A stretch of 64,000 bases of DNA from Alphaproteobacteria bacterium (GCA_965204785.1 OZ242015.1:1942538-2006537); one strand, 5' to 3'. Shown: positions 15,418 to 58,652, counted from the stretch's first letter. Numbers and translations: made by a program. The notes: generated by a model not told the origin, from the sequence alone.

Positions 15418-15450
15418 CCGTCATGGCCCGGCTTGACCGGGCCATGACGG
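15418..15450. terminator. Perfect 14-bp-stem hairpin (CCGTCATGGCCCGG-cttga-CCGGGCCATGACGG) immediately outside the right TIR, between convergent genes. No U-tract.
   Basis: Read directly. Confidence 0.4.
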
Positions 15451-41490: not shown

Positions 41491-42190
41491 GTGGCGCCCG
41501 CGCCACGCTCAATCTGCGTGCTGTCAGGCCGGAGGATCTCAACGCCTATTTCGTACTCTTCCGGGAGGTCCAGGCGCTGCACGTCGCCGAACGGCCCGAC
41601 CTCTTCCAGCCGCCGGAGAAGTCGGAGGCATTCGAGCGCCATTTCGCCGACGCCGTGGCCGCACAAGGAGATCATCATCGCCTGGCTGGGCGGGAACGCG
41701 GTCGGCGCGGTGCATTACAAAGTCACCGGACCCCACCGGGATCTACCTGATCGACCGGCCGATGATCTGGATCGAGTCGATCGCCGTGGCTTCGCACATG
41801 CGCCACAAAGGCATCGCTACCGCGCTGATCTCCCTGGTGCGCCAGGTCGCCGCGCAACAGGGCATCGCCGATCTGGGCCTGGAGGTCTGGTCGTTCAACG
41901 AGGGTGCCGCAATGGCGTTCGAGGCCGCCGGCTTCACCGCGCGCACGCCAGAACCATGCTGGACGCTGTCTGATCAAGGGTGTCGCCTCGCGGTTTATGT
42001 TTGTTCCTTCAGACGCCGAGCGTTCGCCCCGCTCACTTGGCCTCCGTCACAGGGGCGCCGCCGGTACGGTCGCACCGGTCGGCGGCCGCTTCGCTCGCGC
42101 CGCCGAACGTCATCACAACCATCTCAGGCGTGTCATCCCGGCCTTGAGCCGGGATTTCGTTCCGCAGACTGCTTCGGAAACGCGTCATGA
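41488..42190 (+). pseudogene. GNAT N-acetyltransferase split over three frames (shifts near 41655 and near 41740 at a CCCC run). C-terminus runs into a repeat element.
   Basis: 'MSGARATLNLRAVRPEDLNAYFVLFREVQ' then 'HKEIIIAWLGGNAVGAVHYKV' then 'MIWIESIAVASHMRHKGIATALISLV...AFEAAGF'. Confidence 0.55.
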
Positions 42191-42240
42191 CAAGATCCCG
42201 GATAACCGCTCTGCGGTTTCCGGGATGACACCCGGTGGGG
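42030..42240. repeat. Copy A of a mosaic MITE/RIME-like intergenic repeat (modules shared with 53990-54270 and 57434-57760). Internal TIR GTCATCCCGG...CCGGGATGAC.
   Basis: Shared blocks 'GCCGCCGAACG.CATCA..ACCA.CTCA.G.GTGTCATCCCGGCC' and 'GAAACGCGTCATGAC..GATC..GGATAAC.GC...GGTTTCCGGGATGA'. Confidence 0.7.
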
Positions 42241-42243
42241 AAC

Positions 42244-42843
42244 TCAGCCTTGCGGATTTTTCGCGAAAAACTGCGGTGCGAAGAAGCCCATGAGCAGGCG
42301 GTAGGGGAAGAGAAGACTCAGGGCCGTCACCGCCTTCACGCCATAATCGCCTAGGGCGTACTGGACCCAATTGAGGCCCCATTCGGGAAAGAACACGCCG
42401 AAGAGGAGGTAGAAGAAGATCACCGTATCGATGACCGAGGCGACGGCCGAGGAGACCAGCGGCGCCTTCCACCACGCGCCCCTGCGCAGGCGCTGGAAGA
42501 TCGCGATGTCGAGAAGCTGGCCCGACAGGAACGCGCTGCCCGAGGCAACGGCCGTCAAGATAGCGACCGGAGAGAGGACGTTGGGCGCTTCAAAGGGCAC
42601 CCAGTCGGAGAACACCGCCGACATCAGGATGCCGACAACAAACCCGACAAACACAACCTTGGCCGCCCCAGCCGGCCCGAAGGCGCGGTTGGAAAGGTCG
42701 GTCACCAGAAAAGCGAAGGGAAACGTGAACGCACCCCAGGTCAGCCAGTCCCCGATGGGGAAACGAACCAGAATGTTGGAGGCCACGACGACGAACGACA
42801 TGGCGGCAATGGGCAAGGCAAGCGTCAGACGGCCGGTGCTCAT
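42244..42843 (-). CDS. Queuosine-precursor transporter (YhhQ/DUF165, VUT family).
   Basis: Six-TM protein with family-typical 'WGAFTFPFAFLVTDL' and 'YALGDYGVK'. Confidence 0.75.
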   Translation of the reverse strand: MSTGRLTLALPIAAMSFVVVASNILVRFPIGDWLTWGAFTFPFAFLVTDLSNRAFGPAGAAKVVFVGFVVGILMSAVFSDWVPFEAPNVLSPVAILTAVASGSAFLSGQLLDIAIFQRLRRGAWWKAPLVSSAVASVIDTVIFFYLLFGVFFPEWGLNWVQYALGDYGVKAVTALSLLFPYRLLMGFFAPQFFAKNPQG

Positions 42844-42884
42844 GGCCCGTCAGCTCCCGTCAGCGATGTGGAGACGGCCTGGAT

Positions 42885-43187
42885 TCAGGCTTCCCGGGCG
42901 GCCTTGCGAGCGGCGGCCTTCTCCACGCGGCGCTTCAGGCACAGGGCGCCCTCGGGCAGGCGGTTGTCGCGCGAGGACATCAGGTAGGCGTCGATGCCAC
43001 CGCGCTTTTCCACCGTGCGCAGGCCGCTGGCCGACACGCGCAGGCGCACCGTCTGGCCCAAGGTCTCCGAAAAGAGGCTGGTCTGGATCAGATTCGGGCG
43101 GAAAACACGCTTGGACTTGTTCTCGGCGTGGCTCCGGTTGTTGCCGGACATGACTGTCTTGCCTGTCAGTTCGCAGGTGCGCGACAT
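42885..43187 (-). CDS. rpmB: 50S ribosomal protein L28.
   Basis: 'MSRTCELTGKTVMSGNNRSHAENKSKRVFRPNL'. Confidence 0.9.
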   Translation of the reverse strand: MSRTCELTGKTVMSGNNRSHAENKSKRVFRPNLIQTSLFSETLGQTVRLRVSASGLRTVEKRGGIDAYLMSSRDNRLPEGALCLKRRVEKAAARKAAREA

Positions 43188-43279
43188 GGGATGCTCCTAA
43201 GAAAAACATCATGTGGCGCAGCCGTTCCCAGCGCACCACGCGAATCCGGCGGTTTCTATACGCTCGACCCCTTCCGGGG

Positions 43280-43642
43280 TCAACTGTTGGAAGGCTCGGG
43301 AACCAGCGCCACTAGTTTCTTCGGCGCGGTCATACGGTAGCTGCGCTTCACAATGAACGCGACCTCGTTCCAGTCGACATCGCCGTCCAGCCACATCCCC
43401 ACCCAGCCCTTGGGCCCGACATAAGGCGGCGAGAAAAACCGATCAGGGTCTGCGCCGATCAGGATGGTCTGGCTGCCCGGCGGGGCCTTGCAGGAGACCG
43501 CGATGCGGCCGTCCTCTTCCCAAAAAATGGCAAAAATCTTGTCGCGCACACGGAAGTTCGGTCTTTCCCAAGTTTCACGCTCTTCCGCCTCGGGCAGTGC
43601 AAGACAGATGCCGCGCAGTTGATCCAGCGTATCGTCGCGCAT
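43280..43642 (-). CDS. MmcQ/YjbR-family DNA-binding protein; start at internal ATG.
   Basis: 'MRDDTLDQLRGICLALPEAEERETWERPNFRVRDKIFAIF'. Confidence 0.7.
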   Translation of the reverse strand: MRDDTLDQLRGICLALPEAEERETWERPNFRVRDKIFAIFWEEDGRIAVSCKAPPGSQTILIGADPDRFFSPPYVGPKGWVGMWLDGDVDWNEVAFIVKRSYRMTAPKKLVALVPEPSNS

Positions 43643-43646
43643 GGCC

Positions 43647-44597
43647 TCACCCACCGTCCAGGGCGCACCGCGCCGCGTTGCGCAGGGAGAGGTTTCCCGC
43701 CGCGACCTCGCTCTCCAAGAGTTTGAGCAGGGCCTTGCGTTCGGGGTCGGCGCGCAGCCGTGCGGTGGCCAGACGAATGACCTCCTCCCGCAGCGCGGAG
43801 ACGGCCTGGGCCTCACGTTTTCCGGGCAAATGATCCGATGCGGCCTCGAAATAGGCATCCACGGTCGACCACACCGCGTCCACGCCCGCGCCGGTCAGCG
43901 CCGAACAGGCTTCGACCCTCGGCTGCCAGAAAGGTTCATGGGACCGTACTAGGGAAAGGGCGGCGCGGTGGTCTGACACGACATGGCGCGCGGTGTCGGC
44001 CAGCGCGCCGTCGGCCTTGTTGACCAGGATCAGGTCGGCCAGCTCCATGATGCCGCGTTTGACGCCCTGCAGGCTATCTCCGGCGCCGGGTGCGAGCAGC
44101 AGTAGGAACATGTCGGTCAGCGCGGCAACGGCGGTTTCCGACTGGCCCACACCAACGGTCTCGACGATGACCAGATCGTATCCTGCCGCCTCGACCAGCG
44201 TGACGACATCGCGCGTGCACCGCGCCACCCCACCCAGTTCGCCGCCCGAAGGCGAAGGCCGGATGAAGGCCCTGGCGTCGTGCGACAGGCGCTCCATGCG
44301 GGTCTTGTCACCCAGGATCGAGCCCCCGCCCAGGCTGGAGGAAGGATCGACCGCCAGCACAGCGACCTTTTTTCCCTTTTTCAGCGCGTGGAGCCCGAAG
44401 GCCTCGACAAAGGTCGATTTGCCCACGCCGGGCGCGCCGGAGATGCCTAGGCGCCAGCTCTGTTTACTCGACTTGCCCAGCGCCTCGATTAACGATGCGG
44501 CTTTTTTCTCATCTTGCGCACGCGAGGACTCGACCAGCGTGATCGCACGGGCAAGAGCACGCCGGTCGCCGGAACGGATCGCTGCGATGTCGGTCAT
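43647..44597 (-). CDS. meaB: Methylmalonyl-CoA mutase-associated GTPase MeaB (ArgK).
   Basis: 'GISGAPGVGKSTF', 'LVIVETVGVGQSE', 'LILVNKADG'. Confidence 0.85.
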   Translation of the reverse strand: MTDIAAIRSGDRRALARAITLVESSRAQDEKKAASLIEALGKSSKQSWRLGISGAPGVGKSTFVEAFGLHALKKGKKVAVLAVDPSSSLGGGSILGDKTRMERLSHDARAFIRPSPSGGELGGVARCTRDVVTLVEAAGYDLVIVETVGVGQSETAVAALTDMFLLLLAPGAGDSLQGVKRGIMELADLILVNKADGALADTARHVVSDHRAALSLVRSHEPFWQPRVEACSALTGAGVDAVWSTVDAYFEAASDHLPGKREAQAVSALREEVIRLATARLRADPERKALLKLLESEVAAGNLSLRNAARCALDGG

Positions 44598-44605
44598 GGC
44601 GAGTG

Positions 44606-46753
44606 TCAGGCGGCCTGCCGCCCATCCTCCAGAATGCCGATGATCTCGGCTGCGGCCTGGGGGATGTTGGTGCCGGGGCCATAGACCGCCGCAACGCCGA
44701 CCTTTTTCAGCATGGCATAATCCTGGGGTGGCACGACGCCGCCGACGACAACCTCAATATCCTGCGCGCCCTGATCGGCGAGCGCGGCGATCAGTTGGGG
44801 CACCAGCGTCTTGTGGCCGGCTGCCTGGGTCGATACGCCGATGATGTGAACATCGTTTTCGATCGCCTGGCGCGCGGCCTCCTCGGGCGTCTGGAAGAGC
44901 GGGCCGACATCGACATCGAAACCGATGTCGGCGAAAGCGGTGGCGATCACCTTGGCGCCGCGGTCGTGGCCGTCCTGGCCCAGTTTGACCACTAGCATGC
45001 GCGGGCGTCGCCCGTTCCGCTCGGCGAACCCATCGACTTTGCCGCGGATCGTCTCAAACGCCTCGTTACCTTCCCAGGCCGCGCCATAGACTCCCGAGAT
45101 CGAGCGGTTGACGGCGCGGTGGCGGGTAAAGACGCTTTCCATGGCATTGGTAATCTCGCCCACCGTGGCGCGCACCCGTGCCGCCTCGATGGAGAGTGCG
45201 AGCAGGTTTCCGTCGCCCTTCGCGCCTTCGGTGAGCGCCCGCAGCGCCTTCCGGCAGGCATCCTCGTCGCGTTCAGAGCGGACACGCTTCAATCTAGCGA
45301 TCTGGGCTTCGCGCACGGCGGAATTGTCGATATCGCGCACATCGACCTGCTGGAGATCGTCGGCGACGTATTTGTTGACGCCCACGATCACCTCCTCGCC
45401 CCGGTCGATGCGGGCCTGGCGGCGCGCCGCGCTTTCCTCGATGCGCAGTTTCGGCATGCCGGCTTCGATAGCCCGGGTCATGCCGCCCATGCCCTCGACC
45501 TCGTCGATCAGCGCCTGGGCTTCCTCGACCAGCGCATCAGTCAGGGATTCGATGTAGTAGCTGCCGCCCAGCGGATCGACGACATTCGCGATGCCGGTCT
45601 CCTCGGAGAGGATGAACTGGGTATTGCGCGCGATGCGTGCGGCAAAATCGCTGGGCAGGGCCAGCGCCTCATCGAAGCTGTTGGTGTGGAGACTCTGCGT
45701 GCCGCCCAGCACCGCGGCCATCGCCTCGTAGGCCGTGCGCACGATGTTATTGTAGGGATCCTGCTCGGTCAGCGACACGCCCGACGTCTGGCAGTGCGTG
45801 CGCAGCATGGAAGACTGCGGATTCTTCGGCCCGAACGGCTCCATCAGGCGCGCCCACAACACACGCGCAGCGCGCAGCTTGGCGACCTCCATGAAGAAGT
45901 TCATGCCGATGGCGAAGAAAAACGAGAGACGTGGCGCGAACTGGTCGGCATCCAGGCCACGCGATGTCGCCGCGCGGACATAATCGACGCCATCGGCGAT
46001 CGTGAAGGCCAGTTCCTGCACCGCCGTCGCACCGGCTTCCTGCATGTGATAGCCGCTGATCGAGATGCTGTTGAAGCTCGGCATGTATCCGGCCATGTGC
46101 GCGATCACGTCGGCCACGATGCGCATGCTGGGCTCTGGCGGATATATATAGGTGTTGCGCACCATGAATTCTTTAAGGATGTCGTTCTGGATGGTGCCCG
46201 AAAGCCGATCCTGGCCCACGCCCTGTTCCTCGCCCGCGACCACGAACATGGCCAGCACGGGCAACACGGCCCCGTTCATGGTCATAGAGACCGACATCTT
46301 GTCGAGCGGGATGGCATCGAAGAGGATCTTCATGTCCTCCACGCTGTCGATCGCGACACCGGCCTTGCCGACATCGCCCACAACCCGTTCATGGTCGCTG
46401 TCGTAGCCGCGGTGGGTGGCCAGATCGAAGGCGACGGAAAGACCCTTCTGCCCTCCGGCCAGCGCCTGACGGTAGAACGCGTTGGACTCCTCGGCCGTGG
46501 AGAACCCGGCATACTGGCGGATGGTCCAGGGCCGGTTGGCATACATCGTCGCGCGCACGCCGCGCCTGTAGGGCGCGATACCGGGCAACGTATAGGCCTC
46601 GTCGACCTGCGCGAGGTCTTCCTGCGTATAGAGCGGGTTGATCGCCAGACCCTCGGGCGTCTGCCAGACGAGATCGTCCAGCGGCTTATCCTTTAGCTCT
46701 TTCTGCGCCAGGGCGCGCCAGGATTCCGGCGCTTTATCGGAAAATCCGCTCAT
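44606..46753 (-). CDS. Methylmalonyl-CoA mutase, single-chain large form (715 aa).
   Basis: '[44 protein letters not shown]'; C-terminal B12-binding '[27 protein letters not shown]'. Confidence 0.9.
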
Positions 46754-46813
46754 CGGCTTTTAACCATCCATCTCGCAAGTGCGAAATGAGTATGGGATCG
46801 CCCCCGTGGACCG

Positions 46814-47373
46814 TCAATCCGTCGAACGCGCCCGCGGCACTTCGAGCGACACGTCGCGGGGCGAGTCGTCGCCGCCATTTGTCGGATAGACATTGTCGGG
46901 ATAGGCCGAAAACACCATCAGACAGGGAATCAGCGCCTTCACTTGAACGTAACTGCCCGGCGGACGACCGGACGCACATAGTCGATCGCCTTGCCGTGCT
47001 GACCGGGGCCAGCATGAAGTAGGTTCCAGGTCGCCGGCGTGAAGGAGCAGGACCTGCCCTCCCCGGCCAGGGCATGGGCCAGATTGTCCGAGCAGTTGGC
47101 GTGCCCGGCGTCCGCACCGGCCCGTTCGTACATGCCCGGACTGCAGGCGGCGATCAGCGTGTCGCCGGGATCGAAGGTGATTTTCTGGAGCACCTCGCGG
47201 CGGTGCTCCATCGAAAGCAGATCGTCCTTGCCGTCGTCTGCGAACGCCCAGGTATCGACGAACTGCGTGCCGTGTGTGTTGACGATGCGCAGGCAATCGC
47301 CCCGACGGAGGCGTACCGCGCGCCCATGAGCGCCCGGCAAGCGAAGACGGGTTTCGGGCTCAGCCATCGCCAT
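46814..47373 (-). CDS. DUF1989 (urea-carboxylase-associated) family protein with one frameshift near 46975-47000.
   Basis: 'GRAVRLRRGDCLRIVNTHGTQFVDTWAF...HANCSDNL' in one frame continues as 'GSYVQVKALIPCLMVFSAYPDNVYPTNGG' in the -1 frame. Confidence 0.5.
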
Positions 47374-48280
47374 AGTCCGGGTTCCGGCTGATCCAATTTG
47401 CAACCTTCGCGTCGATCACAACCGCAAGGTCAGGCGCCAGGCGGGCAAGCTCGTCATGGATGAACTTTGAACGCGCGCGGATTTCCGGGCTGCCGTCGAT
47501 CTCGGCCGACAAACCGGCCCAGAACATGGCGGCCGCGGCAATGCGTTCGGCGAGACTGCCGTCGTCCCGCTCGGCGATCGAAGACAGCAGCTGGGCGAGC
47601 ATCGCCGCCGCGCGCACCTCTCCGCCCTCAAAGGCAATCCTGAGGTAGGTGTTGGCCTTCGCCGGACCGAACTCCCTGCCGTTGTTCGCATTCTTGTAAT
47701 CAAGGCCCACAAGCATGGCCGCAAAGGCGTGCCCGCCATCGGCGGCCGCAGCCAGCCAGTAGTTCGCCTTTTCCAGATCTTACTCCGTACCGACCCTGCG
47801 CTGACACCAGTCCGCCACGGTGTCCATCGCCTCAATGTCGCCCGCCTCAGCACCACGTTTTGAACTGGGCCTCGGCAATACCGGCTCACCGGCCTCGCGA
47901 TAATAGTCGCAACCCCGAACCGTGTTGGCGTTCACGTCTTCGCCATTGGTATACATGTCACCCAACACCATCGCGGCGCGGGCGTCACCCTGCGCAAGGG
48001 CCGTGGTCAGCGTCGCCAGTGCAAGACCGTAGCCCCTCTCGCGCGCGGCGGTCCCAAGATCGTAGCTATCCGAAGCCGGCGCCGGCGCCGTCCCCAGAAG
48101 CCGGCGCCGTCCCCAGAAGAAATACCAGGATCAGGTTTTTACCAACGGCCATTAGATTTAGCCGTGGAGCCATGCGTTCGCTCACCATACCTGTCTCCAC
48201 GCTATTCCGCGGTGACAGCATGGCGTCAGATCCGTCCGGGTTCAAATTCCCACGGTGACGGCACGGCACATTCCAGCTCG
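47360..48280 (-). pseudogene. Secreted Sel1-repeat protein disrupted by a 19-bp tandem duplication (48082-48119) and an in-frame TAA (47780-47782).
   Basis: Signal peptide 'MAPRLNLMAVGKNLILVFLLGTAPASG'; Sel1 motifs 'LGDMYTNGEDVNANTVRGCDYYREAGE' and 'MLVGLDYKNANNGREFGPAKANTYLRIAFEGG' lie in a frame +1 from the signal peptide. Confidence 0.6.
48082..48119. repeat. Exact 19-bp tandem duplication (CCGGCGCCGTCCCCAGAAG ×2) causing a frameshift in the Sel1-repeat gene.
   Basis: Read directly. Confidence 0.85.
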
Positions 48281-48428
48281 GACTTCTCGTCAGAACGACG
48301 GCCTGCGTCTGTCTTGGGGCATTCGTTCCGCCAGTAAAGGCCGCGAAAGCGATACCCGCGCATCGGCGAACGGGCTTGACGCCGCGGACAGGCACCCTAG
48401 AACGACTCGAAGAGCGTCTTGTTCCGGG

Positions 48429-48920
48429 CTAGAGGACGTTCCAGGCGGCAGTGAATCCGGTCAGCGAGAGCGGCAGCGTCGCGGGCTGTCCCACGGTGTC
48501 GTAGATCGTGATCATGGCCTGGTTGCCGGCCTTCATGCTGCCCACGACATCATCGGTCAGCGTGACCTGGGTCATGCATCCGTCGACAAAGCAGGTAAGG
48601 AAACCGATTGTTCCCAGATCTTCCTGGTCCACAACCATGTTGAGACCGTTGGGCAGAAAAATGCCCAGTGGAACGGTGATGCGCAGAAGAGGTTCGACAC
48701 CAGTAGGCTTGGCCGCCACGGCCGTCATGACCCGTTCGCCGTTGGCCTGCATGTCGACGGCCTGAAACATGAAACACTCCTGCGCGCCGACCTGACCGGT
48801 CGTGCAGTGGATCTGCCAGTCGCCATGCGTCTCGCGCAAGGTATCGGCCAGCTCCTGGGCCACAGCAGGAAAAGACGCAAACAAACTCGCGGCAAAGAGA
48901 CCAAAAACAGTTAGGCGCAT
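48429..48920 (-). CDS. Invasion-associated locus B (IalB) family protein with signal peptide.
   Basis: 'MRLTVFGLFAASLFASFPAVAQE' then IalB-family conservation ('GDWQIHC...CFMFQ...GFLTCFVDGC'). Confidence 0.8.
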   Translation of the reverse strand: MRLTVFGLFAASLFASFPAVAQELADTLRETHGDWQIHCTTGQVGAQECFMFQAVDMQANGERVMTAVAAKPTGVEPLLRITVPLGIFLPNGLNMVVDQEDLGTIGFLTCFVDGCMTQVTLTDDVVGSMKAGNQAMITIYDTVGQPATLPLSLTGFTAAWNVL

Positions 48921-49093
48921 GGTGATTTCCCGTTTGGACACGTATTGAATGGGAGAGAAACAATCGTTGCGGCCGTTCTAAGGCATAAATGGGACGCGGC
49001 GCGAACACCGACAAGACCGCAGGCAGGCCTATTCCTGCCGTGGTCCGTCATGCTAGGTTGCCCGTCTGCCCCGCGCACGACCATTCTGAGGAT

Positions 49094-50437
49094 ATGATCA
49101 TGGATGACAACGGTATCAACTACCCCGAACGGCCGAACGATCTGGAATCGTTCTGGATGCCCTTCACCACCAACAAGGGCTACAAGCAGTCCCCGCGTCT
49201 GCTCTCGGGCGCCAAGGACATGCACTACGAAACGCCCGATGGCCGCAAGATCCTCGACGGCACCGCCGGATTGTGGTGCTGCAACGCGGGCCACGGACGC
49301 GAAAAGATCGCCCAGGCAATCAAGGCGCAGGCCGAGAAGATGGACTTCGCGCCCACCTTCAACATGGGGCATCCGGCCGCCTTTGAATTCGCCAACCGGC
49401 TGGTCGAGATCATGCCGGGCAACCTGGATCACGTGTTTTTCACCAATTCGGGCTCTGAGTCGGCCGATACGGCGCTCAAGATCGCTCTGGGATACCATTA
49501 CGTGCGCGGCAGGGGCTCCAAGACACGCCTGATCGGGCGTGAGCGCGGTTATCACGGCACCAATTTCGGCGGCACCTCGGTGGGCGGCATCGTCAAGAAC
49601 CGGCAATTCTACGGCTCGCTGCTTTCGGGCATCGACCACATCCGCCACACCCACGACATTGAGCACAATGCCTTCTCGAATGGTCAACCCGAGTGGGGTG
49701 CGCATCTTGCCGATGACCTGGAGCGCCTGGTCCAGCTCCATGACGCCTCGACCATCGCTGCGGTGATGGTCGAGCCGGTCGCGGGCTCGACCGGCGTGCT
49801 GGTGCCGCCCAAGGGCTATCTGCAGCGCCTGCGCGAGATCTGCACGAAACACGACATTCTGCTGATCTTCGATGAGGTCATCACCGGCTTTGGCCGCCTG
49901 GGATCGAGTTTCGCCGTGGAGCATTTCGGTGTCGAACCCGACATCGTCACTACGGCCAAGGGCCTGACCAACGCCACGGTCCCTATGGGTGCGGTATTCT
50001 GCCAGAAGAAGATCTATGACGCCTTCATAGAGAACACCAAGGCCGGCATCGAGCTCTTCCACGGCTACACCTATTCGGGCCACCCGCTGGCCAGCGTGGC
50101 CGGCATTGCCACGCTCGACATCTACAAGGAAGAAGGCCTGTTCGAACGGGCCGCGGAACTGTCGAGCTACTGGGAGGACTGCCTGTGGTCGCTCAAGGGC
50201 GGTAACCACGTGATCGACCTGCGCAATTTGGGCATCATCGCGGGCATCGAACTGGAGCCGCGCCCCGATGCGCCGACGGCACGCGCCATGGAGGCGTTCC
50301 ACGAGTGCTTCGACGATGGCCTGCTCGTGCGCGTGACAGGCGATATCATCGCGCTGTCGCCGCCGCTGATCGTAGAAAAGACGCATATCGACCAGATCTT
50401 CGACACCATCGGCAATGTGCTGAAGTCCATTGACTGA
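49094..50437 (+). CDS. Class III (omega) aminotransferase, beta-alanine/omega-amino acid:pyruvate type.
   Basis: 'FTNSGSESADTALKIAL', 'DEVITGFGRLG', PLP-lysine region 'VTTAKGLTNATVPMGAV'. Confidence 0.85.
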   Translation: MIMDDNGINYPERPNDLESFWMPFTTNKGYKQSPRLLSGAKDMHYETPDGRKILDGTAGLWCCNAGHGREKIAQAIKAQAEKMDFAPTFNMGHPAAFEFANRLVEIMPGNLDHVFFTNSGSESADTALKIALGYHYVRGRGSKTRLIGRERGYHGTNFGGTSVGGIVKNRQFYGSLLSGIDHIRHTHDIEHNAFSNGQPEWGAHLADDLERLVQLHDASTIAAVMVEPVAGSTGVLVPPKGYLQRLREICTKHDILLIFDEVITGFGRLGSSFAVEHFGVEPDIVTTAKGLTNATVPMGAVFCQKKIYDAFIENTKAGIELFHGYTYSGHPLASVAGIATLDIYKEEGLFERAAELSSYWEDCLWSLKGGNHVIDLRNLGIIAGIELEPRPDAPTARAMEAFHECFDDGLLVRVTGDIIALSPPLIVEKTHIDQIFDTIGNVLKSID

Positions 50438-50442
50438 ACGGG

Positions 50443-51658
50443 TTGCCCGGTGAGACCGCTTATCGCTCGCCGGGCCCCGACTTGTATCAGAGGAGACGCC
50501 CAATGGCCGGGTCATGGTTCCGGGCGCCGTTGAACGCAATCGTGCTGCTTTGGGGCGTGTTGCTCATCACGTCATGCGATGACGCCGCGACGCCGATGCC
50601 AACCGCGACGCCACCACTCACGCTGATGGTCGTGACCGTCAGCGAACGCGAGATCGTTGGCGAGGCCTAATTACGTCGGTCGCGTCGAGGCGGTGGCCGA
50701 TGTCGAGTTGCGTGCACGGGTCACCGGTTTCATCGAGGAAATCCTGGTCACCGGCGGCCAGGACGTGAAGGAAGGTGATCTTCTTTTCCTGATCGAGTGC
50801 GCACCGTTCCAAGCCAGCGTCGATCTAGCCCGCGCCAACGTCGCCAACGCGCAGACCAATGTGAACATGACCGGATTGCAACTCCAGCGCAGCCAAACCC
50901 TTTACGACGGCGGCGATCTGACCAAGGCCAGGCTGGAACAGGACCGCTCGGCATAAAGGCAGGCGACCGCCCAACTCCAGGCCGAACAGACGCAGTTGCG
51001 TCAGGCCGAGATCGAATTTGGCTATACCTTGATCATCGCGCCCATTGCAGACCATGTCGGCGCGACCGCCTACAGCGTGGGCGTCCTTGTCGACGCCTCC
51101 AGCAATCTCTTGACGGACATCATTAGCCTCGATCCCATATACGTGACCTTCTCGGTCAACGAAAACATCATGTTCCAGGTCAAACGCGTCCGCATCGAAC
51201 TGGGTCTGGACGCAACGTTCGAGGCAACCGACGGGATCGAGACCCTGGTCATCCCCGGCTGTGCTTGTCCGACGGCAGCGGCGTCATCGACTTCATCAAA
51301 AGCACGGTAGACCTTCGCACGGGCGCGATAGACGTCCGCGGTGTTTCCCAACCCGGATCAGTTTCTTTCGCCGGGCCAGTTCGTGACCGTGGTGGTCAGC
51401 GAGGAAGCACCGCAAAGCGCCATCACGATCCCCCAGACCGCGGTGCAGAGTGACAAGGCCGGCACCTTTGTCCTAGTGGTCGATGCCCAGAACCAAGTCT
51501 CGCAACGGCGCATCACGACCGCGAGGACCGACGGCACCGACTATGTGGTCAACAGTGGTCTCGTCCAGGGCAACACAGTGATCGTCCAGGGCATCCTGAA
51601 GGTGTGGCCCGGCGCGCCGGTCAACCCGGTCTACGATACCAGCGGCGCCGGCGGCTGA
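50443..51658 (+). pseudogene. RND efflux membrane-fusion (AcrA-like) protein gene, fragmented over ≥4 frames.
   Basis: Pieces: lipoprotein signal 'LLITSCDD'; 'YVGRVEAVADVELRARVTGFIEEILVTGGQDVKEGDLLFLIE'; 'QAEIEFGYTLIIAPI'; 'GQFVTVVVSEEAPQSAITIPQTAVQSDKAGTFVLVV'. First break is a missing C in 'gaggcc(c)taat' at 50664-50672. Confidence 0.7.
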
Positions 51659-51665
51659 GCAGACC

Positions 51666-53060
51666 ATGGCAGACTTTTTCATCGAGCGGCCGAAGTTCGC
51701 GTTCGTCATCTCGATCCTGATTACCCTGGGCGGGCTCATCTCACTCAGCGTCCTACCAGTCTCCGAGTTTCCCGACATTTCACCCCCGCAGGTCTCGATA
51801 TCCGCCAGTTATCCCGGCACCAATGTCGAAGTCATCGAGGACACGGTAGCCGGCCGATCGAGTCCCAGGTCAACGGCGTCGACGGCATGAGCTCGACCAG
51901 TTCATCTTCGGGAAGCTAAAACCTCACCGTTACCTTCGATCTGGGGATCGATTCCGACCTTGCCGCGGTCAACATCCAGAACCGTGTCGCGGTTGCCGAA
52001 AACTCATTGCCCGAGGAAGTCTGGCGCGGCGGCGTAACCGTCAAGAAGGCCTCGCCCAGCATGTTGATGGTGATCAACGTGTTTTCACCGCAGGGCACCT
52101 ATGACAGCGTGTTCCTCAGCAACTACACCAGCATCAATCTGCGCGACGCCATCCAGCGCGTGCCAGGGGTCGGTGACGCTTCGCTTCTGGGCACGCAGGA
52201 CTACGGCATGCGTGTCTGGCTCGACCCTGACCGCATGGCTTCGCTTGTCCTGACGGCGAGCGATATCGTCAACGCCATCCGCGCGCATAACATCCAGGCC
52301 ACCGCGGGCCAGATCGGCGCCGCGCCAATCGGCGAGGGCCAGCAGTTCCAGTATTCGATCAGAGCGCAGGGTCGCCTGAGTTCGCCCAAGGAATTCGGCG
52401 ACATCGTCGTCATCTCCTATCCCGAAGGCGGGGATCCGCGCCTGCGCGACATCGCGCGTATCGAACTGGACTCGGCAGCATATGGCTCCTACGGACAACT
52501 GAACGGACAGGCTCCGGCGGCGCTCGCCATCTATCAGGCGCCGGGTGTCAACGCGCTCGTCATGGCCGAAGTCGTGATGAACGATGTCGAGGAAATCCTG
52601 ATGACACGGGCGGCGTCGCCGACGTCATGGTCATTCCGGGCTTCAACCTGCTGGGCGGCGCGATCTCGAACGGCGGCATGGTCATCGTGGTGCTAGACCC
52701 CCGGGAAGAGCGCACGACCCGTCGCTCGACATCAACGTGATCATGGGCAAAGCCCAGGACCAGATTCTGGCAATCAGCCAGGCCAACGCATTCGCGCCGC
52801 CGGTTCCGGGACCAGGCACGACCGGCGGCTTCGATTTCAAGGCCCAGGACGTTTCGGGCCGGACGCTCCAGAATCTCGCCCAGGCGATCGGCGCTATGAT
52901 GTACAACGCCAACCAGGACTCCATGCTTTCGGGCGTTTTCAGCACTTTCCGCGCCAACGTGCCGCAGCTCTTCCTGGAGGTCGACCGCGAGAAGGCCGAG
53001 ACGCTGGGCATTCCGCTAGTCGTCATCCATCCCGCGCCGCGCCGGGCGGTCACGACATAA
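51666..53060 (+). pseudogene. RND efflux permease (AcrB-like) gene. Only ~the first 450 of ~1040 codons remain, with frameshifts and an in-frame TAA (51917-51919).
   Basis: 'MADFFIERPKFAFVISILITLGGL...PPQVSISASYPGTNVEVIEDTV' and 'NIQNRVAVAENSLPEEVWRGGVTVKKASPSMLMVINVFSPQGTY' in different frames. Homology ends ~53040, where a minus-strand TM-protein remnant (53016-53311) begins. Confidence 0.7.
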
Positions 53061-53313
53061 CCGGCGGTAAAGAGGGCAATGGCCGGTATGGCGAGCAGCG
53101 TTCCCAGCGCTGCCTCCGCAGCGAACGCCGGACCGTATTCGACGGCCAGGAATACCGAGACGGGGCCGGTGGTGAGAGGCAGGCCCAAGAGCCGGCCTCG
53201 GGCAGCCGCACCCCAGCACGAACAACCATACGGCCGCCGCAATGATGAACGATGGTGCAACCAACTTGAAAAAGAGCAGCGACACGGCGAACCGTCACAC
53301 GCGCCGGACACGT

Positions 53314-53925
53314 TCAGCCGCGCTTGGCGATGTCGTTGAGTTGTTTCTGGAGCGCGTCGATCTGGCCCTTGAGGGCGTCGAGACTGGCGCCACTGCCTTC
53401 TGCGGGCACATCGGACTCGGCCTTGCCGTTGCCGGTCGCAGCGGAGCCTGGATAGAACATCTCCATGGTGCGTTGGAACATCGCCATGTTGTTCTTGACC
53501 ATGTCCTCCATGGCCCCGCCGGCTTCCTGTCCGCCGAAGGGAAATATCTGGCCGAAGGTCTGAGACATCATGTCGCGCACCTGCTCCTGATTTTTCGTCA
53601 GGTTCTCCATGCTCATTTCGAGATAACGCGGCACGAAGGTCTGCAGGCTATCGCCATAAAAGCCAATCAGTTGGCGAAGAAAGCTGATGGGCAGAAGGTT
53701 GGCGCCCTTGGACTCCTCTTCGACGATGATCTGTGTGAGCACCGACCGCGTGATGTCGTCGCCCGATTTGGCGTCGAACACGGCGAACTCCACGCCGTCC
53801 TTCACCATCTGGGCGAGGTGGTCCAGCGTGACGTAACTGCTGGTCGCCGTGTTGTAGAGACGGCGGTTGGCGTATTTCTTGATGACGACAGCACCGTCGT
53901 CCTGCTTTTCCTGTTCGCGCGCCAT
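53314..53925 (-). CDS. phaR: Polyhydroxyalkanoate synthesis repressor PhaR.
   Basis: 'VVIKKYANRRLYNTATSSYVTLDHLAQMVKDGVEFAVFDAKSGDDITRSVLTQII' (PHB_acc_N). Confidence 0.85.
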   Translation of the reverse strand: MAREQEKQDDGAVVIKKYANRRLYNTATSSYVTLDHLAQMVKDGVEFAVFDAKSGDDITRSVLTQIIVEEESKGANLLPISFLRQLIGFYGDSLQTFVPRYLEMSMENLTKNQEQVRDMMSQTFGQIFPFGGQEAGGAMEDMVKNNMAMFQRTMEMFYPGSAATGNGKAESDVPAEGSGASLDALKGQIDALQKQLNDIAKRG

Positions 53926-53989
53926 TATGGGTGCACCCGTCTCTGCTTTGACGCCCATTATGACGCCTATGCTGCAATGCGAACAGGTT

Positions 53990-54270
53990 TTGTTGCAACG
54001 CGGGATATCCCAGACGGATTTTGTTTTAGCCTCAGTCGCCGGCACTCGCTCCGCTCGCCTGACTTCCGCGCCTATCGGCGCGCCAGTGCGATCGCACCGG
54101 CCGGCGCCCGCTCCGCTCTTGCCGCCGAACGGCATCATGACCACCTCAAGTTTGTAGGCGGGAGGCCCTTTATGGGGCCGACAGGGACGCGACCGCGTAT
54201 GCGGCGTGAGCCAAGTGAGCGGAGCGAGCAAAACACCCAAGCCGAACCCAATTCCGCGCGTTATACTATC
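53990..54270. repeat. Copy B of the mosaic intergenic repeat family, in the phaR–phaC-like intergenic region. Has ~14-bp terminal inverted repeats CACTCGCTCCGCTCGC…GCGAGCGGAGCGAG.
   Basis: Shares 'GCCGCCGAACGGCATCATGACCACCTCAAGT' and 'GGAGGCCCTTTATGGGGCCGACAGGG…AAGCCAAGTGAGCGGAGCGA' modules with copies A and C. Confidence 0.7.
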
Positions 54271-54274
54271 GCCA

Positions 54275-55636
54275 TGACCAAGCGCGACGAACGCGACGAA
54301 CTTGCCAGTCTTGCCAGGGACTTCATGGACCTGTGGCAGGAGCACGTGGCCCAGCAGGCGGCCGACCCGACGCTGGCGCGCTGGGCGCAGACCTGGCTTG
54401 CCAACATGCCGACGGGGGTGACCGGGGATGGAAGCACACAGGACGGGGCCGCGCCCCTTGGCCCTGCATCTCGCAACATCGGCAAGCGTCTGGATGAGTT
54501 CGCTCGCCGCCTTGGGGCCTGCGAGGAGCGGCTTGATAAGCTGGAGCAAAAACCTGCCCGCAAAACAGCGCGAAAGTCTGGGCCCGATCCAGACCGCGAT
54601 CGCGGCAGCCGACGCTGAAGGGCTGGCCCGCGAAGTCACCGCCGAAGCGACGCGCCGCCTTTCCGAATTCGTCGCCGGCATCCGTGCCTATCGTGACCAC
54701 CCCTACCGCCGTCCCGCGACACAGGCTGGGCCGATCTGGCAGGACGGCTCCTCGCGGTTGCTGGACTACGGCGGCACGGGCCGTCCGCTGCTTCTCGTTC
54801 CGTCCCTTATCAACCGCGCGGAAATCCTCGACCTGCGGCCGGGTGCGAGCTTCTGCGCCTGGCTCCGCGACCATGGGCATCGTCCCCTACTGCTCGACTG
54901 GGGTGCGCCGGGCGAGGCGGAGACCAATTTCAACCTCGACACATACATCAACCGGCGCCTGGGCGTTGCGCTCGATGCGGCCAACAGACTGGCGGACGGA
55001 TCGGTCCCCATGGTCGGCTATTGCATGGGCGGTTTGCTGGCTCTCGCCTCGGAGTTCGCCAACTCCGGCAAGGTTTCAAGCCTCGCTCTGCTTGCCACGC
55101 CCTGGGATTTCCATGCCGACCGCAGCGGCCAAACCGGCATGCTCGCCACAGCCGCGGCACTGCCTAGCGCGCCGGACACCCCGCCGCTCCCGGTCGATCT
55201 GATCCAGGCGCTGTTTGCCTCCCTGCAGCCCAACCTGATCCAGGCGAAGTTCCGCCGCTTCGCCACGATGGACCCGGCCGCCCCGGAAACAGAGGCCTTT
55301 GTCGCACTGGAGGATTGGCTGAACGACGGCGTCGCACTCGCAGCACCGGCTGCGCGTGATTGCCTGATCGGCTGGTACCGCAACAACACCCCGGCCGAAG
55401 GCCGCTGGATGGTGAACGATGTGCCCATCGACCCCGGCAAGCTTACCTGCCCCGCCTTCGTCGCACTCTCCACCCGTGACCGCATCGTGCCGCCTGCCTC
55501 GGCGAGCGCACTGGCCCAGGCTCTGCCTGACCCCACAGTCATCGAACCGCGCACCGGCCACATCGGCATGATGGTCGGCAGCCGCGCCGAATCAGCGCTG
55601 TGGTGGCCATTGGCGGAGTGGCTGGAGTCCCACTAA
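54275..55636 (+). CDS. PHA-synthase (PhaC)-like alpha/beta hydrolase, short form; one frameshift at an A5 run near 54547-54554.
   Basis: Lipase box 'VGYCMGGLL'; 'RPLLLVPSLINRAEILDLRPGASFCAWLRDHGHRPLLLDW' parallels the PhaC 'PLLIVPPWINKYYILDL' region. N-terminal 54275 frame joins the 54428 frame at 'LDKLEQ|KNLPAKQ'. Confidence 0.6.
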
Positions 55637-56260
55637 GATTTCACGCGGCAAGGAGCGACGACCTGCATCACAAAGATCAAGATCTGGACGCGATCTGGGC
55701 ATCCTCTTGAGACATGTTTCCGCCACGGTACACCTCAGAGCAGTCGGTCGAGACCATCAAATCGATTGAATGATGCAGTGTGATTTCCGATGATCGATTT
55801 CTTGGAGAAGCACTTTTACCGGCTCTTCATCCTGGCGATCTGGGCGCCCAGCCTTTTTCTTCCGTTGGCCAAAAGCTACGCATCGGCATGACGCCTGTTC
55901 GCCTGTTGATTCCTTGGCGTACTGATTTTCCTTTCTGTGGTTGGAAATATCATTTTCGTCCTTTTGGTCTATGTCCTAAGCAGTCCCGTGATCGTGTTCA
56001 GCCTGCTTGGCGCCGATATCATCAACAAATCGCGTGTTTATCGGATCTACAGACCTTACCTCCTGATCTTTCGTTTCGCTGTGCCGATACTTGGTCTACT
56101 CCTTGCAGTGTGGTTGGCACAGGTGCTCAAGTTCATTGCCCGCCTTGGTCTGACCTGACATTCAGGCCTTCGCACCTGCACACAGAATTTTGCACCTGCG
56201 AAATGGGGATTCATGCCCTATATTGAAGGTAATACGTTCAGACCAGATCAGGAGATCATC

Positions 56261-57433
56261 ATGACCGCGATCGTCATCGCCAGTGCGACGCGTACGCCCG
56301 TGGGGAGTTTCAACGGAGCGCTTTCCAGCCAGCCAGCCCATGAACTGGGCCGGGTCGCCATTGAGGGCGCGATGGCGCGCGCCGGGGTCGAGGCCGGAGA
56401 GATCGACGAGGTCATCATGGGCCAAATCCTGCAGGCCGGCGAAGGCCAGAACCCGGCCCGTCAAGCCTCCATCGGCGCGGGCATTTCCGTCGAAGCGCCC
56501 GCATGGAGCCTGAACCAGCTTTGCGGTTCGGGTCTGCGCGCAGTCGCCGTGGGTTACCAGCAGATTCTGAATGGCGACGCCGGCATCGTCGTCGCCGGCG
56601 GCCAGGAGAGCATGAGCCAGGCGCCCCACTGCATGCATCTGAGGAACGGTGTCAAGATGGGCCCGGCCGAGATGGTCGACACCATGATCAAGGACGGCCT
56701 GTGGGACGCGTTCAACGGCTATCACATGGGCAACACGGCCGAGAACGTCGCGCGCCAGTGGCAGATCACCCGTGAAGACCAAGACAATTTCGCCGTCACC
56801 AGTCAGAACCGCGCTGAGGCAGCACAGAAGGCCGGCAAGTTCAAGGACGAGATCGTTCCCGTAACGATCAAGACCTGCAAGGGCGAGACGGTCGTGGAGA
56901 ACGACGAATACATCCGCCACGGCGTCGAATACGAACCGCTCGCCAAGCTGCGCCCTGCCTTCGAGAAGGACGGCACGGTCACGGCCGGCAACGCATCAGG
57001 CATCAACGACGGTGCCGCCGCCGTGGTCCTGATGACGGCAGAGGAAGCCAACCGCCGTGACATCGCACCCATGGCGCGCATTGCAAGCTGGGCGCACGCC
57101 GGCGTCGAACCCGCGATCATGGGTTCGGGTCCCATCCCCGCCAGCCGCAAAGCACTGGAGAAGGCCGGATGGGACATCGGCGATCTCGATCTCATCGAAG
57201 CCAACGAGGCGTTCGCCGCCCAAGCCTGCGCGGTCAACAAGGAGCTTGGTCTCGACGCCGACAAGGTGAACGTGAACGGCGGGGCCATCGCCATCGGTCA
57301 TCCCATCGGCGCATCGGGTGCACGCGTGCTGAACACCCTGCTCTTCGAAATGCAAAAACGCGATGTCAAGAAGGGTCTCGTCACGCTTTGCATCGGCGGC
57401 GGCATGGGCGTCGCCCTCTGCGTCGAGCGGTAG
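56261..57433 (+). CDS. phaA: Acetyl-CoA C-acetyltransferase (beta-ketothiolase).
   Basis: Thiolase active sites '[11 protein letters not shown]', '[19 protein letters not shown]', '[10 protein letters not shown]'. Confidence 0.9.
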
Positions 57434-57760
57434 GAACACCTCAAGTGTGTCATCCCGGCCAAGCGAAGTGCGAGCCGGAATCACGGTCCGCACGTTGCTT
57501 CAGGAACGCGTCATGACGGGATCACGGATAACTGCGGAGTTTACCCTCGACCTGATCGAGGGCGGTTTCCGGGATGATACCCTGTTGGGATGGTGAGTAA
57601 TCGGGATGCCCACATTGAGCCGGCAGGGACGCCGCTGCGTCCCTGCCGCGCATGCGCGTAAGCCAAGTGAGTAGAGCGAATGCTCAACGTTTGAGGGAGT
57701 ACCATAAACCCGGAGGCCCTTTATGGGACGACAGGGCCCCGGCCGCGTCCGGCGCGGAGC
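57434..57760. repeat. Copy C (composite) of the mosaic intergenic repeat family, filling most of the phaA–phaB spacer.
   Basis: Contains the GTCATCCCGG…CCGGGATGA module (as in copy A) followed by the 'AAGCCAAGTGAGTAGAGCGA … GGAGGCCCTTTATGGGACGACAGGG' module (as in copy B). Confidence 0.7.
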
Positions 57761-57929
57761 GGATTTGAGACCTAATCGGCTAAAAAGACCGCCCGATTTG
57801 TCGCAATCAGCGTGGACTCCGGCGGACTGAGCCGTTACATCCGCGTCTCCACCTTGAGAGATAGTTGTGGCATTGAGCCGTTCATATCGGGCGGCCTCTG
57901 GATTTGACGGACGATCGGGAGATCAGACC

Positions 57930-58652
57930 ATGGGTCGTGTTGCCCTTGTGACCGGAGGCAGCCGCGGGATCGGCGCTGCCATTTCCACCGCGCTGAAGGA
58001 AGCCGGCTATGCCGTTGCGGCAAACTATGCCAGCAACGACGATGCCGCCCGTTCGTTCACCACCGAGACGGGCATTGCCGCATTCAAGTGGGACGTCAGC
58101 GACCACGACGCCTGCGCGGCCGGTGTCGCCCAGGTCGAGGAACAGGTCGGGTCGGTCGAAGTGCTGATTAACAACGCGGGCATCAGCCGCGACAGCTTCC
58201 TGCACAAGATGTCGGAAGAAAACTGGCAGACCGTCATCGATGTCGATCTTTCATCCTGCTACCACATGAGCCATGCGGTGCTGAACGGCATGCGCGGGCG
58301 CGGCTTCGGGCGCATTGTCAACATCAGCTCGATCAACGGCCAGGCCGGCATGATGGGCGTGGTGAACTATGCCGCCGCCAAGGCCGGCATGATGGGCTTC
58401 ACCAAGGCGCTGGCCCTGGAGAACGCGGGCAAGGGCATCACGGTCAACGCCATCTGCCCAGGCTATGTGAAGACCGACCTCATCAAACATGTCAGCGAAG
58501 AGGTCATGGGCGCGATCGTCAAGCGCATCCCCGTAGGCCGCATCGGCGAGCCCGAAGAAATCGCCCGCTGCGTCACCTTCCTGACCGACGACAACTCCGG
58601 CTTCATCACCGGCTCCATCCTCTCGGTCAACGGCGGCGCCTATATGGCGTAG
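57930..58652 (+). CDS. phaB: Acetoacetyl-CoA reductase (SDR).
   Basis: 'VALVTGGSRGIGAAIS', 'NAGI', 'YAAAKAG' catalytic YxxxK. Confidence 0.9.
   Translation: MGRVALVTGGSRGIGAAISTALKEAGYAVAANYASNDDAARSFTTETGIAAFKWDVSDHDACAAGVAQVEEQVGSVEVLINNAGISRDSFLHKMSEENWQTVIDVDLSSCYHMSHAVLNGMRGRGFGRIVNISSINGQAGMMGVVNYAAAKAGMMGFTKALALENAGKGITVNAICPGYVKTDLIKHVSEEVMGAIVKRIPVGRIGEPEEIARCVTFLTDDNSGFITGSILSVNGGAYMA

Follow-up and report, generated by a model that had tools for sequence, protein, structure and literature searches.

BOX elements are put together from modules, an internal one of which varies in number, and the mosaic elements of rhizobia known as RIMEs (intergenic mosaic elements specific to Rhizobium) were reportedly described by Osteras et al. 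in 1995. Bacterial MITEs (miniature inverted-repeat transposable elements) are small and non-coding, carry inverted ends, lie between genes, fold into one long stem-loop and vary in occupancy from one relative to another (PMC3184786), and the intergenic palindrome mosaic of rhizobia is of unknown function (PMC2573895). Here we describe a repeat of this general kind in a 64,000-nt stretch of an alphaproteobacterial genome (GCA_965204785.1, OZ242015.1:1942538-2006537; hereafter the window), in which three intergenic segments lie in and near the genes for polyhydroxyalkanoate (PHA) metabolism. An initial annotation of the window had proposed a mosaic MITE/RIME-like family in three copies, two of them splitting the PHA operon. 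We found that the three segments are partial copies of one composite element, a large palindrome (X) into which a second, smaller element (Y) is nested. We consider it probable, at roughly 70%, that what remains here are worn copies, in part deleted, of a repeat that is non-autonomous, forms hairpins, resides between genes and is of the MITE, REPIN (doublet of inverted repetitive extragenic palindromes, REPs) or mosaic-element kind.

Each segment, copy A (41995-42243), copy B (54019-54228) and copy C (57437-57790), was compared with the whole window by sensitive blastn, and the mutual matches had E values of 6e-21 to 1e-5. A 41991-42133 aligned with B 54015-54155 (74% across 144 nt, E 6e-21), A 42120-42209 with C 57437-57535 (73%, E 1e-12), A 42213-42241 with C 57562-57590 (90% over 29 nt), and B 54161-54211 with C 57712-57760 (80% over 51 nt, E 1e-5). 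A further match joined B 54154-54227 to C 57597-57679 (E 5e-5), and A 41985-42068 matched C 57638-57717 as its reverse complement (E 3e-7). Beyond A, B and C, no further match appeared anywhere in the 64 kb. GTCATCCCGG occurs exactly at 42132 (plus strand), 42220 (minus strand) and 57449 (plus strand), and with one mismatch at 57569 (minus strand); no other exact copies were found across the 64 kb. The arms of copy B (54045-54069 and 54204-54228) form an inverted repeat, being 80% complementary. A profile hidden Markov model of X, trained on 20 copies all taken from other genomes, matched all three segments in nhmmer searches: A at 41995-42119 (model positions 2-126, E 8e-25), B at 54019-54228 (3-250, E 1e-34) and C at 57581-57697 (151-266, E 2.8e-11). 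The two approaches agree, and the similarity that had been noticed initially was kept on proper alignment. The initial annotation had counted the copies correctly, had placed them within ~35 bp, and had quoted inverted repeats, for A and C as well as for B, that are indeed present.

The three copies retain different portions of the composite. Copy A, on the plus strand like the other two, consists of the left arm of X (41995-42119), with its T-rich tip, terminal unit, local hairpins and CACCGGTCGGCGGCCGCTTCGCTC core, followed by the apex module Y (42120-42243), a hairpin doublet with the termini GTCATCCCGG at 42132-42141 and CCGGGATGAC at 42220-42229. Copy B (54019-54228) is a reduced X without Y, the right tip of which is deleted and the left tip of which is a fused solo unit. 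Copy C begins with Y (57437-57595; termini at 57449-57458 and 57570-57579), which shows X-type junctions on both sides, and continues with the right arm of X (57581-57709), ending in the tip TTTGAGGGAGTACCATAAAC. A second, decayed right-arm fragment, running from a GGAGGCCCTTTATGGG hairpin to a degenerate tip, lies at 57710-57790; it falls below the nhmmer threshold and was recognised from its blastn match to B (80% over 51 nt, E 1e-5). The right arm of copy C also matches the left-arm part of the model on the reverse strand and matches, in reverse complement, the left tip of copy A; inverted matches among the window segments follow from the palindromy of X. Most of the apparent shuffling of modules in the window results from three unlike truncations of one palindromic composite, namely left arm plus apex, a short whole, and apex plus right arm. 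Shuffling, which the initial annotation had seen in the window itself, is nevertheless real in relatives, where the copies are fuller. The left arms of 46 copies from other genomes can be aligned with copies A and B, the Y of copy A is 91% identical over 109 nt to a Y within a full X::Y at the locus L021 of a metagenome-assembled genome (MAG), and the Y of copy C matches, by blastn, that of copy A as well as the Y modules of L036, L041, L033, L034 and L021.

Further copies were sought with a 24-nt core common to A, B and the related contig L001, CACCGGNCGGCGNCCGCTNCGCTC, in 185,579 species-representative genomes. Forty-five exact matches fell in three related MAGs (19 in A_MB180, 23 in S1_Bin_Bin_233_1 and 3 in the Rhodospirillaceae MAG SI072_bin42), and more copies are present in L001 and L048, two of the three relatives described below. 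The first two MAGs, which are marine, thus hold at least 19 and 23 copies of X. Five additional matches in unrelated bacteria were dismissed as chance, the surrounding sequence being unrelated. In the loci retrieved, the profile identified 37 full-length copies of 241-408 bp. Every copy scored on the opposite strand as well, which shows that X is one long imperfect palindrome. All the full copies lie between predicted genes, 12 of them convergent, 12 co-directional and 6 divergent according to a heuristic gene caller. The proposal of an interspersed family of palindromic modules residing between genes was thus borne out.

X is an imperfect palindrome of 270-410 bp with inverted ends of ~45 nt, T-rich tips and several local hairpins. 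Its left end starts with the T-rich tip TTTTTGTTTGTT and a terminal unit of one of two flavours, GTTCCCTCA… or TAGCCTCA…; then come a hexamer-TCC-hexamer motif in at least six variants, three more local hairpins including the core, and an internal module, CTGCTCACC…GGTG, in one, ~1.5 or two copies, the terminal units numbering one to three. Past the internal module lies the apex, and from there the right arm mirrors the left and ends in …TGAGGCTAAAAGACAAA. Solo terminal units of ~37 nt stand in tandem outside both ends of many copies. Mosaicism among the MAG copies involves the two tip flavours, three variants of hairpin 2, zero to two internal modules, the tandem solo end-units, and the subtypes of Y carried inside X, which occur in both orientations. 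In the four left-arm hairpins, 92.8% of cells were paired as against 86.8% in column shuffles (0 of 500 reached the observed value), the structure having been drawn from the same sequences on which it was scored, which favours it; with slid partners, pairing dropped to 27-51%. In one left-arm helix, three pairs change on both sides in 9-14 sequences. The median identity of X copies is 86% within one MAG (range 77-92%) and 80% between different MAGs, and copy B is ~70-72% identical to the MAG copies. X is an old family and not a recent burst. It is confined to a narrow clade of marine alphaproteobacteria, having been seen only in marine MAGs labelled uncultured Alphaproteobacteria or Rhodospirillaceae.

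Two loci deserve separate mention. An X::Y occupies one orthologous site in two MAG species (L021 6383-6768 and L036 1352-1739). The right-hand Y modules of these two copies differ, each matching the variant that predominates in its own genome, which hints at homogenisation within a genome or replacement of the module. At L013 (6043-6213, at a contig end), the left arm of X is broken at the apex by sequence of lower GC content with three spaced TGTGCGTCA repeats, and the interruption resembles one end of a larger transposon that has entered X.

The nested element, Y, is a ~90-130 nt doublet of inverted GTCAT-type hairpins, which usually resides at the apex of X. In the MAG loci, 16 of 18 Y copies (GTCATCCCGG…CCGGGATGAC) occupy that position, in both orientations; the window copies span 42132-42229 and 57449-57579. 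Y is also found by itself. L048 carries a solo Y directly past the phaA stop codon, L001 has a miniature version at the same place, and in L002 a related hairpin doublet stands alone in the spacer between a GNAT-like gene and Vut_1. The exact 24-nt Y hairpin, GTCATCCCGGCCTTGAGCCGGGAT, occurs in at least 120 metagenome contigs (L052-L171), which range from 39 to 73% in GC content and stem from varied environments according to their sample identifiers; X was seen in none of the matches listed. Downstream of the hairpin, the partner terminus was present in 74 of the 114 evaluable cases listed, giving a median total of 87 nt. Against plasmids, the Y doublet gave a weak match to two sphingomonad plasmids only, and we found no published description of the hairpin. 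On account of its solo copies and of the hairpins in X-free contigs, Y is a separate element and a member of a cosmopolitan family of hairpin doublets laid out like a REPIN, for which X acts as a frequent host. A lone perfect hairpin, CGTCATGGCCCGGCTTGACCGGGCCATGACG, lies at 15418-15450 of the window and belongs, as one unit, to a related subfamily of GTCAT hairpins. Members of that subfamily form doublets in L002 (505-637, the GNAT/Vut_1 spacer), L041 (6384-6501) and L005 (3426-3538), and lie inside X in L045 and L014.

At copy B, occupancy of the site can be compared between relatives. For this we used contigs of relatives located via their PhaA homologs, L001 (PhaA 92% identical), L048 (90%) and L002 (87%); among named organisms, those closest in PhaA are MAGs of the Rhodospirillaceae or Rhodospirillales. 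Copy B lies between phaR (start at 53925, minus strand) and a small open reading frame (ORF) that precedes and overlaps a PhaC-like gene (ATG at 54274). The same spacer holds a full X::Y at the same site in L048 and in L035 (PhaR 85% identical) and an X in the opposite orientation in L001, while in L002 (PhaR 78% identical) the site is empty and carries a TTTTGTTTGG run at the insertion point. A four-way alignment set copy B beside the full X::Y of L048, that of L035 and the unoccupied L002 site. Relative to the two full elements, copy B lacks the right tip and the apex with its Y, and an outer solo unit has become fused to the element's own end. By these comparisons, copy B is an old insertion common to the window, L048, L035 and, inverted, L001, and absent from L002. 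An X::Y would have entered the spacer before the lineage split from the three relatives, the apex and one tip being lost later. Copy B had been described as one of the copies splitting the PHA operon; it does stand between phaR and the PhaC-like gene, as stated, but this is a divergent promoter region and not the interior of an operon.

The family, then, is dispersed and intergenic, palindromic with conserved hairpins, variable in occupancy and prone to decay by internal deletion, and its larger element harbours the smaller. As in MITEs, terminal inverted repeats surround a short non-coding core and mirror one another in the full copies, and, by the counts from related MAGs, many dispersed copies of less than ~400 bp lack a transposase gene. 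Both X and Y would be selfish DNA that spreads by means of an enzyme acting in trans, and would then decay by recombination and deletion between their own repeated modules. Several points weigh against such an origin. No direct repeat indicating a target-site duplication was found at the borders of the 37 full X copies, where the tips are T-rich or A-rich and often accompanied by flanking solo units, and the one empty site, that of L002, has diverged too far for the junction to be placed. An autonomous partner was not seen either: widely spaced inverted tips enclosing an ORF were absent from 47 loci, and all of the 116 tip motifs in the sampled loci fell in X copies or adjacent solo units. MAG assemblies usually lose copies of insertion sequences (ISs), and the absence of an autonomous IS carries little weight. 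No HUH…WQGRF motif, by which a REP-associated tyrosine transposase (RAYT) might be recognised, was detected by a crude search that covered the window and ~1.2 Mb of retrieved loci. Mobility is read from dispersal and from one presence/absence site. The MAG loci were chosen by the X core pattern, which biases both core conservation and the association of X with Y. Copies that are only 77-92% identical within a genome are old, and the family may no longer be active. Finally, conserved hairpins and long persistence at orthologous sites would fit a host function as well.

Among the alternatives, it is possible, albeit on the unlikely side, that the elements, and Y especially, are REPINs, that is, two REP hairpins in inverted order which a RAYT, encoded once in the genome, copies as single-stranded DNA, instead of classical MITEs moved by a DDE transposase that recognises terminal inverted repeats. 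The layout of Y agrees with this idea: in those 74 of 114 listed cases, a palindromic unit of 24 nt, the 5' end of which is a fixed GTCA(T), is followed by a spacer and an inverted partner (median 87 nt), and a single perfect unit stands alone at 15418-15450 of the window. The lack of a target-site duplication points the same way, as do the old, diverged and lineage-persistent copies, which resemble REPIN populations as portrayed in PMC3337134 and bioRxiv 10.1101/2022.05.22.493013. Nevertheless, the crude motif search yielded no RAYT gene, X exceeds the described REPINs three- to fourfold in length, and its long terminal inverted repeats and tandem terminal units fit end-binding by a transposase better. 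Furthermore, the occurrence of the Y hairpin in contigs of 39-73% GC looks more like horizontal spread than like the mostly vertical inheritance described for REPIN-RAYT systems. The layout of Y suggests a REPIN/RAYT route, and the long inverted ends and repeated end-units of X suggest an end-binding transposase.

A second alternative is that X, Y or both are kept for the benefit of the host, either as RNA hairpins that protect 3' ends, attenuate read-through or direct cleavage by RNase between phaA and phaB, or as DNA sites bound by nucleoid proteins or gyrase, as reported for BIMEs (bacterial interspersed mosaic elements). We regard host function as a weaker rival and an unlikely main reason for persistence, since L002 does without the phaR/PhaC-like insertion and each window copy has lost a different part. 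The local hairpins are maintained by compensatory changes, the insertion between phaR and the PhaC-like gene persists in four lineages, and L021 and L036 share an X::Y at an orthologous site, all of which would be expected of a useful structure. The folds predicted for A, B and C are more stable than those of shuffled sequence (z -2.6 to -3.7), with -55.4 kcal/mol (z -3.7) for the Y of copy A, -65.2 kcal/mol (z -2.9) for that of copy C and -101 kcal/mol (z -2.6) for the third fold. Moreover, for BIME, REP and Correia elements there are reports of effects on mRNA stability, of binding to integration host factor and gyrase, and of promoters carried within them (PMC3184786). However, the window copies are truncated in three ways, which speaks against selection for a defined structure at these sites. 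Hexamer variants in the left arm are independent of those in the right arm, so that pairing of the whole palindrome is not kept, and no Rfam family matches: Rfam 15 gave no match at the gathering threshold in the window and no element match at E<=1 in four full-copy loci. Hits to cspA, mir-33 and RsmZ were set aside as lying elsewhere or below threshold.

With regard to transcription termination, many X copies directly follow strong flank hairpins, the T-tract of which merges with the T-rich tip (for example in L012, L015, L019, L022, L026 and L040). On either strand, however, X reads as T-rich tip, palindrome and A-rich tip, the reverse of the order in an intrinsic terminator, and no hairpin-plus-T-tract terminator was found inside A, B or C. 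Flank hairpins that abutted X tips were counted in 37 of 56 cases at a loose threshold and without a control, and we do not rely on this count; X may prefer the T-tracts of terminators, to which the TTTTGTTTGG run at the empty L002 site may also point, the count of flanks having no control set. Where a strong, simple flank hairpin ends only a few bases from X's T-rich tip, the hairpin and tip together read like an intrinsic terminator for the neighbouring gene. Effects of the repeats on mRNA stability or processing are possible in view of the predicted folds. The initial annotation had suggested that the repeats may affect regulation of the PHA locus, but such an effect is not to be assumed and there is no evidence of a new regulatory mechanism; any influence on PHA expression would be a by-product of stable hairpins in transcripts and of longer spacers.

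The two remaining sites can likewise be compared with the relatives. Copy A has no right arm, its end directly adjoining the stop codon of Vut_1 (42244-42246, minus strand), and is probably an X::Y that lost this arm beside the gene. Vut_1 itself is intact and 83% identical to its L002 ortholog. The view that copy A replaces the 3' end of the GNAT gene is overstated on comparison with L002, the ortholog of which aligns as far as codon 158 of 163 (ending at 41947), with X beginning 48 nt beyond. The loss at the 3' end would thus be at most the last five codons and the stop. Instead, the ortholog aligns to the window in three successive frames, indicating two frameshifts, near 41660 and 41725, and the last frame stays open into copy A up to 42190. 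The GNAT gene may be either a pseudogene or affected by sequencing or assembly indels.

Copy C begins 3 nt past the phaA stop codon (57431-57433) and was said to split phaA and phaB as adjacent genes. In all three relatives examined, a gene for a major facilitator superfamily (MFS) transporter (MFS_1, ~405 codons) separates phaA from phaB (L001 11437-12657, L002 11283-12503, L048 7380-8594), and no trace of this gene was found in the whole 64-kb window. Copy C thus stands where a gene has been lost and does not split an operon; judging from these arrangements, phaA and phaB were not adjacent in this clade. The right boundary of the copy is defined by a conserved region upstream of phaB (57795-57929, plus strand), which lies outside the repeat and is homologous to the spacer between the MFS gene and phaB in L001 (window 57795-57960 against L001 12698-12863: 76.5% over 166 nt, E 2e-33). 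At the left boundary, the first 25 nt past phaA correspond to the Y-type hairpin of L001. The stretch 57434-57929 holds only repeat debris where relatives keep the MFS gene. Copy C would be the remnant of an X::Y after a deletion that probably took the MFS gene too; one deletion, or recombination between Y copies, may have removed the gene together with the left arm of X. An intermediate of the form phaA-Y-MFS-X::Y-phaB was not found in a metagenome scan with the phaB-upstream motif, in a collection that does not include the sample of L001. That copies A and C are instead halves of one X::Y separated by rearrangement or by a ~15-kb insertion is extremely improbable and was rejected on synteny: they lie on the same strand as left arm plus Y and Y plus right arm, which together would make one complete element, but the order GNAT/Vut_1-phaR-phaA-phaB is the same in L002, which has X at none of these sites, so that the 15 kb between them is ancestral and not an insert, while each copy holds a complete Y, the two being only 73-90% identical, and a Y-type hairpin already directly follows phaA in L048 and L001.

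The gene map was drawn from Pfam and NCBIfam scans and from the orthologous loci. On the plus strand are the GNAT-like gene (~41490 to ~41950-41973), the small conserved ORF (54274-54618), a distant PhaC-like alpha/beta hydrolase (54428-55636), phaA (56261-57433) and phaB (57930-58652), and on the minus strand Vut_1 (42244-42843) and phaR (53314-53925). Copy A is thus flanked by convergent, copy B by divergent and copy C by co-directional genes. The small ORF (~114 codons) starts 38 bp past copy B and overlaps the start of the PhaC-like gene at 54428 in a different frame. It has no Pfam or NCBIfam match and is kept in L001, L002, L035 and L048. This ORF looks coding, because its third codon positions account for most of the variation at 54274-54427 (27 against 12 and 11); inside the overlap, the third-position bias shifts to the frame of the PhaC-like gene. 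Its product may serve as a small partner subunit resembling PhaE, or may be an N-terminal part that a frameshift joins on.

The repeats are without stop codons in some frames. A mechanical ORF of 455 codons (53314-54681, minus strand) extends phaR through copy B, and the public call for phaR in L048 (1777-2556) has 259 residues as against ~203, with 56 codons running into X. Repeats of this kind create false ORFs and would also mislead predictions of small RNAs or regulatory motifs. They also record the history of the PHA locus, in which the promoter region of phaR and the PhaC-like gene received an insertion long ago and the MFS site bears the scar of a deletion. The practical consequences are modest and concern annotation and locus history. 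Of wider interest to the field of bacterial repeats is the Y hairpin, which is very widespread in environmental contigs of alphaproteobacterial appearance; the exact 24-mer in contigs of 39-73% GC means a very wide spread. If X were served by a dedicated mobilising enzyme or had a host function, it would represent a new repeat system in marine alphaproteobacteria. We think it quite unlikely that X constitutes a previously undescribed class of large (270-410 bp) palindromic mosaic, the apex of which is a preferred landing site for Y and the 37-nt end-units of which amplify in tandem, with the element settling against terminator T-tracts. If it does, such elements could drive gene loss, for example that of the missing MFS gene between phaA and phaB.

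The comparison with described systems points to a new family within a kind of selfish bacterial repeat already known. Searches of Rfam and of plasmid sequences gave no link by sequence to any of the systems compared here, and in the literature the core sequences brought up unrelated primers only. The resemblance to BOX of Streptococcus pneumoniae (PMC3049150) lies in modularity and in the variable number of internal modules; sequence and host are unrelated, and BOX is not a long palindrome with a nested element. X is closer to MITEs such as Correia elements (CREE) of Neisseria, ERIC (enterobacterial repetitive intergenic consensus) of enterobacteria and Nezha of cyanobacteria, in being ~100-400 bp long, without coding capacity and with inverted ends, and in its many dispersed intergenic copies, long stem-loop folding and differing occupancy among relatives. 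It departs from them in that neither a target-site duplication nor a parent IS was found, in that its inverted ends reach ~45 nt or more, making the whole element in effect a palindrome, and in its two tip flavours, tandem solo end-units and second element nested at the apex.

Y is like the REP/BIME and REPIN-RAYT systems of Escherichia, Pseudomonas and Stenotrophomonas in being a doublet of inverted short GC-rich palindromes with a fixed 5' tetranucleotide, and both X and Y share with REP/BIME the formation of intergenic mosaics with other motifs, often between convergent genes, in persistent and diverged copies. To our knowledge, the Y unit GTCATCCCGGCCTTGAGCCGGGAT is unrelated to described REPs. 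Unlike in REPIN-RAYT systems, no RAYT was identified, by a crude search, and X is much larger than a REPIN; its terminal units repeat in direct orientation, whereas BIME units alternate.

A kinship with RIME, ERIC or Sm-repeats, which the initial annotation had proposed, found no support at the sequence level. Among 72,556 plasmids, in which rhizobial megaplasmids ought to be represented, blastn gave no match to a full X::Y, and there was no match in Rfam; no similarity of X to RIME was found by these indirect tests, which are not a comparison with the RIME consensus. The hosts differ as well, X residing in marine Rhodospirillaceae-like bacteria and not in Rhizobiaceae, outside the range of Rhizobium, Sinorhizobium and Agrobacterium to which RIME is restricted. 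In kind, however, X and Y are like RIME1 and RIME2, the Sm-repeats and the A/B/C palindromes of Sinorhizobium and Rhizobium in being alphaproteobacterial and intergenic and in combining larger with smaller palindromes, and, as in mosaics of the RIME and BIME type, their palindromic modules occur between genes in variable order, number and orientation.

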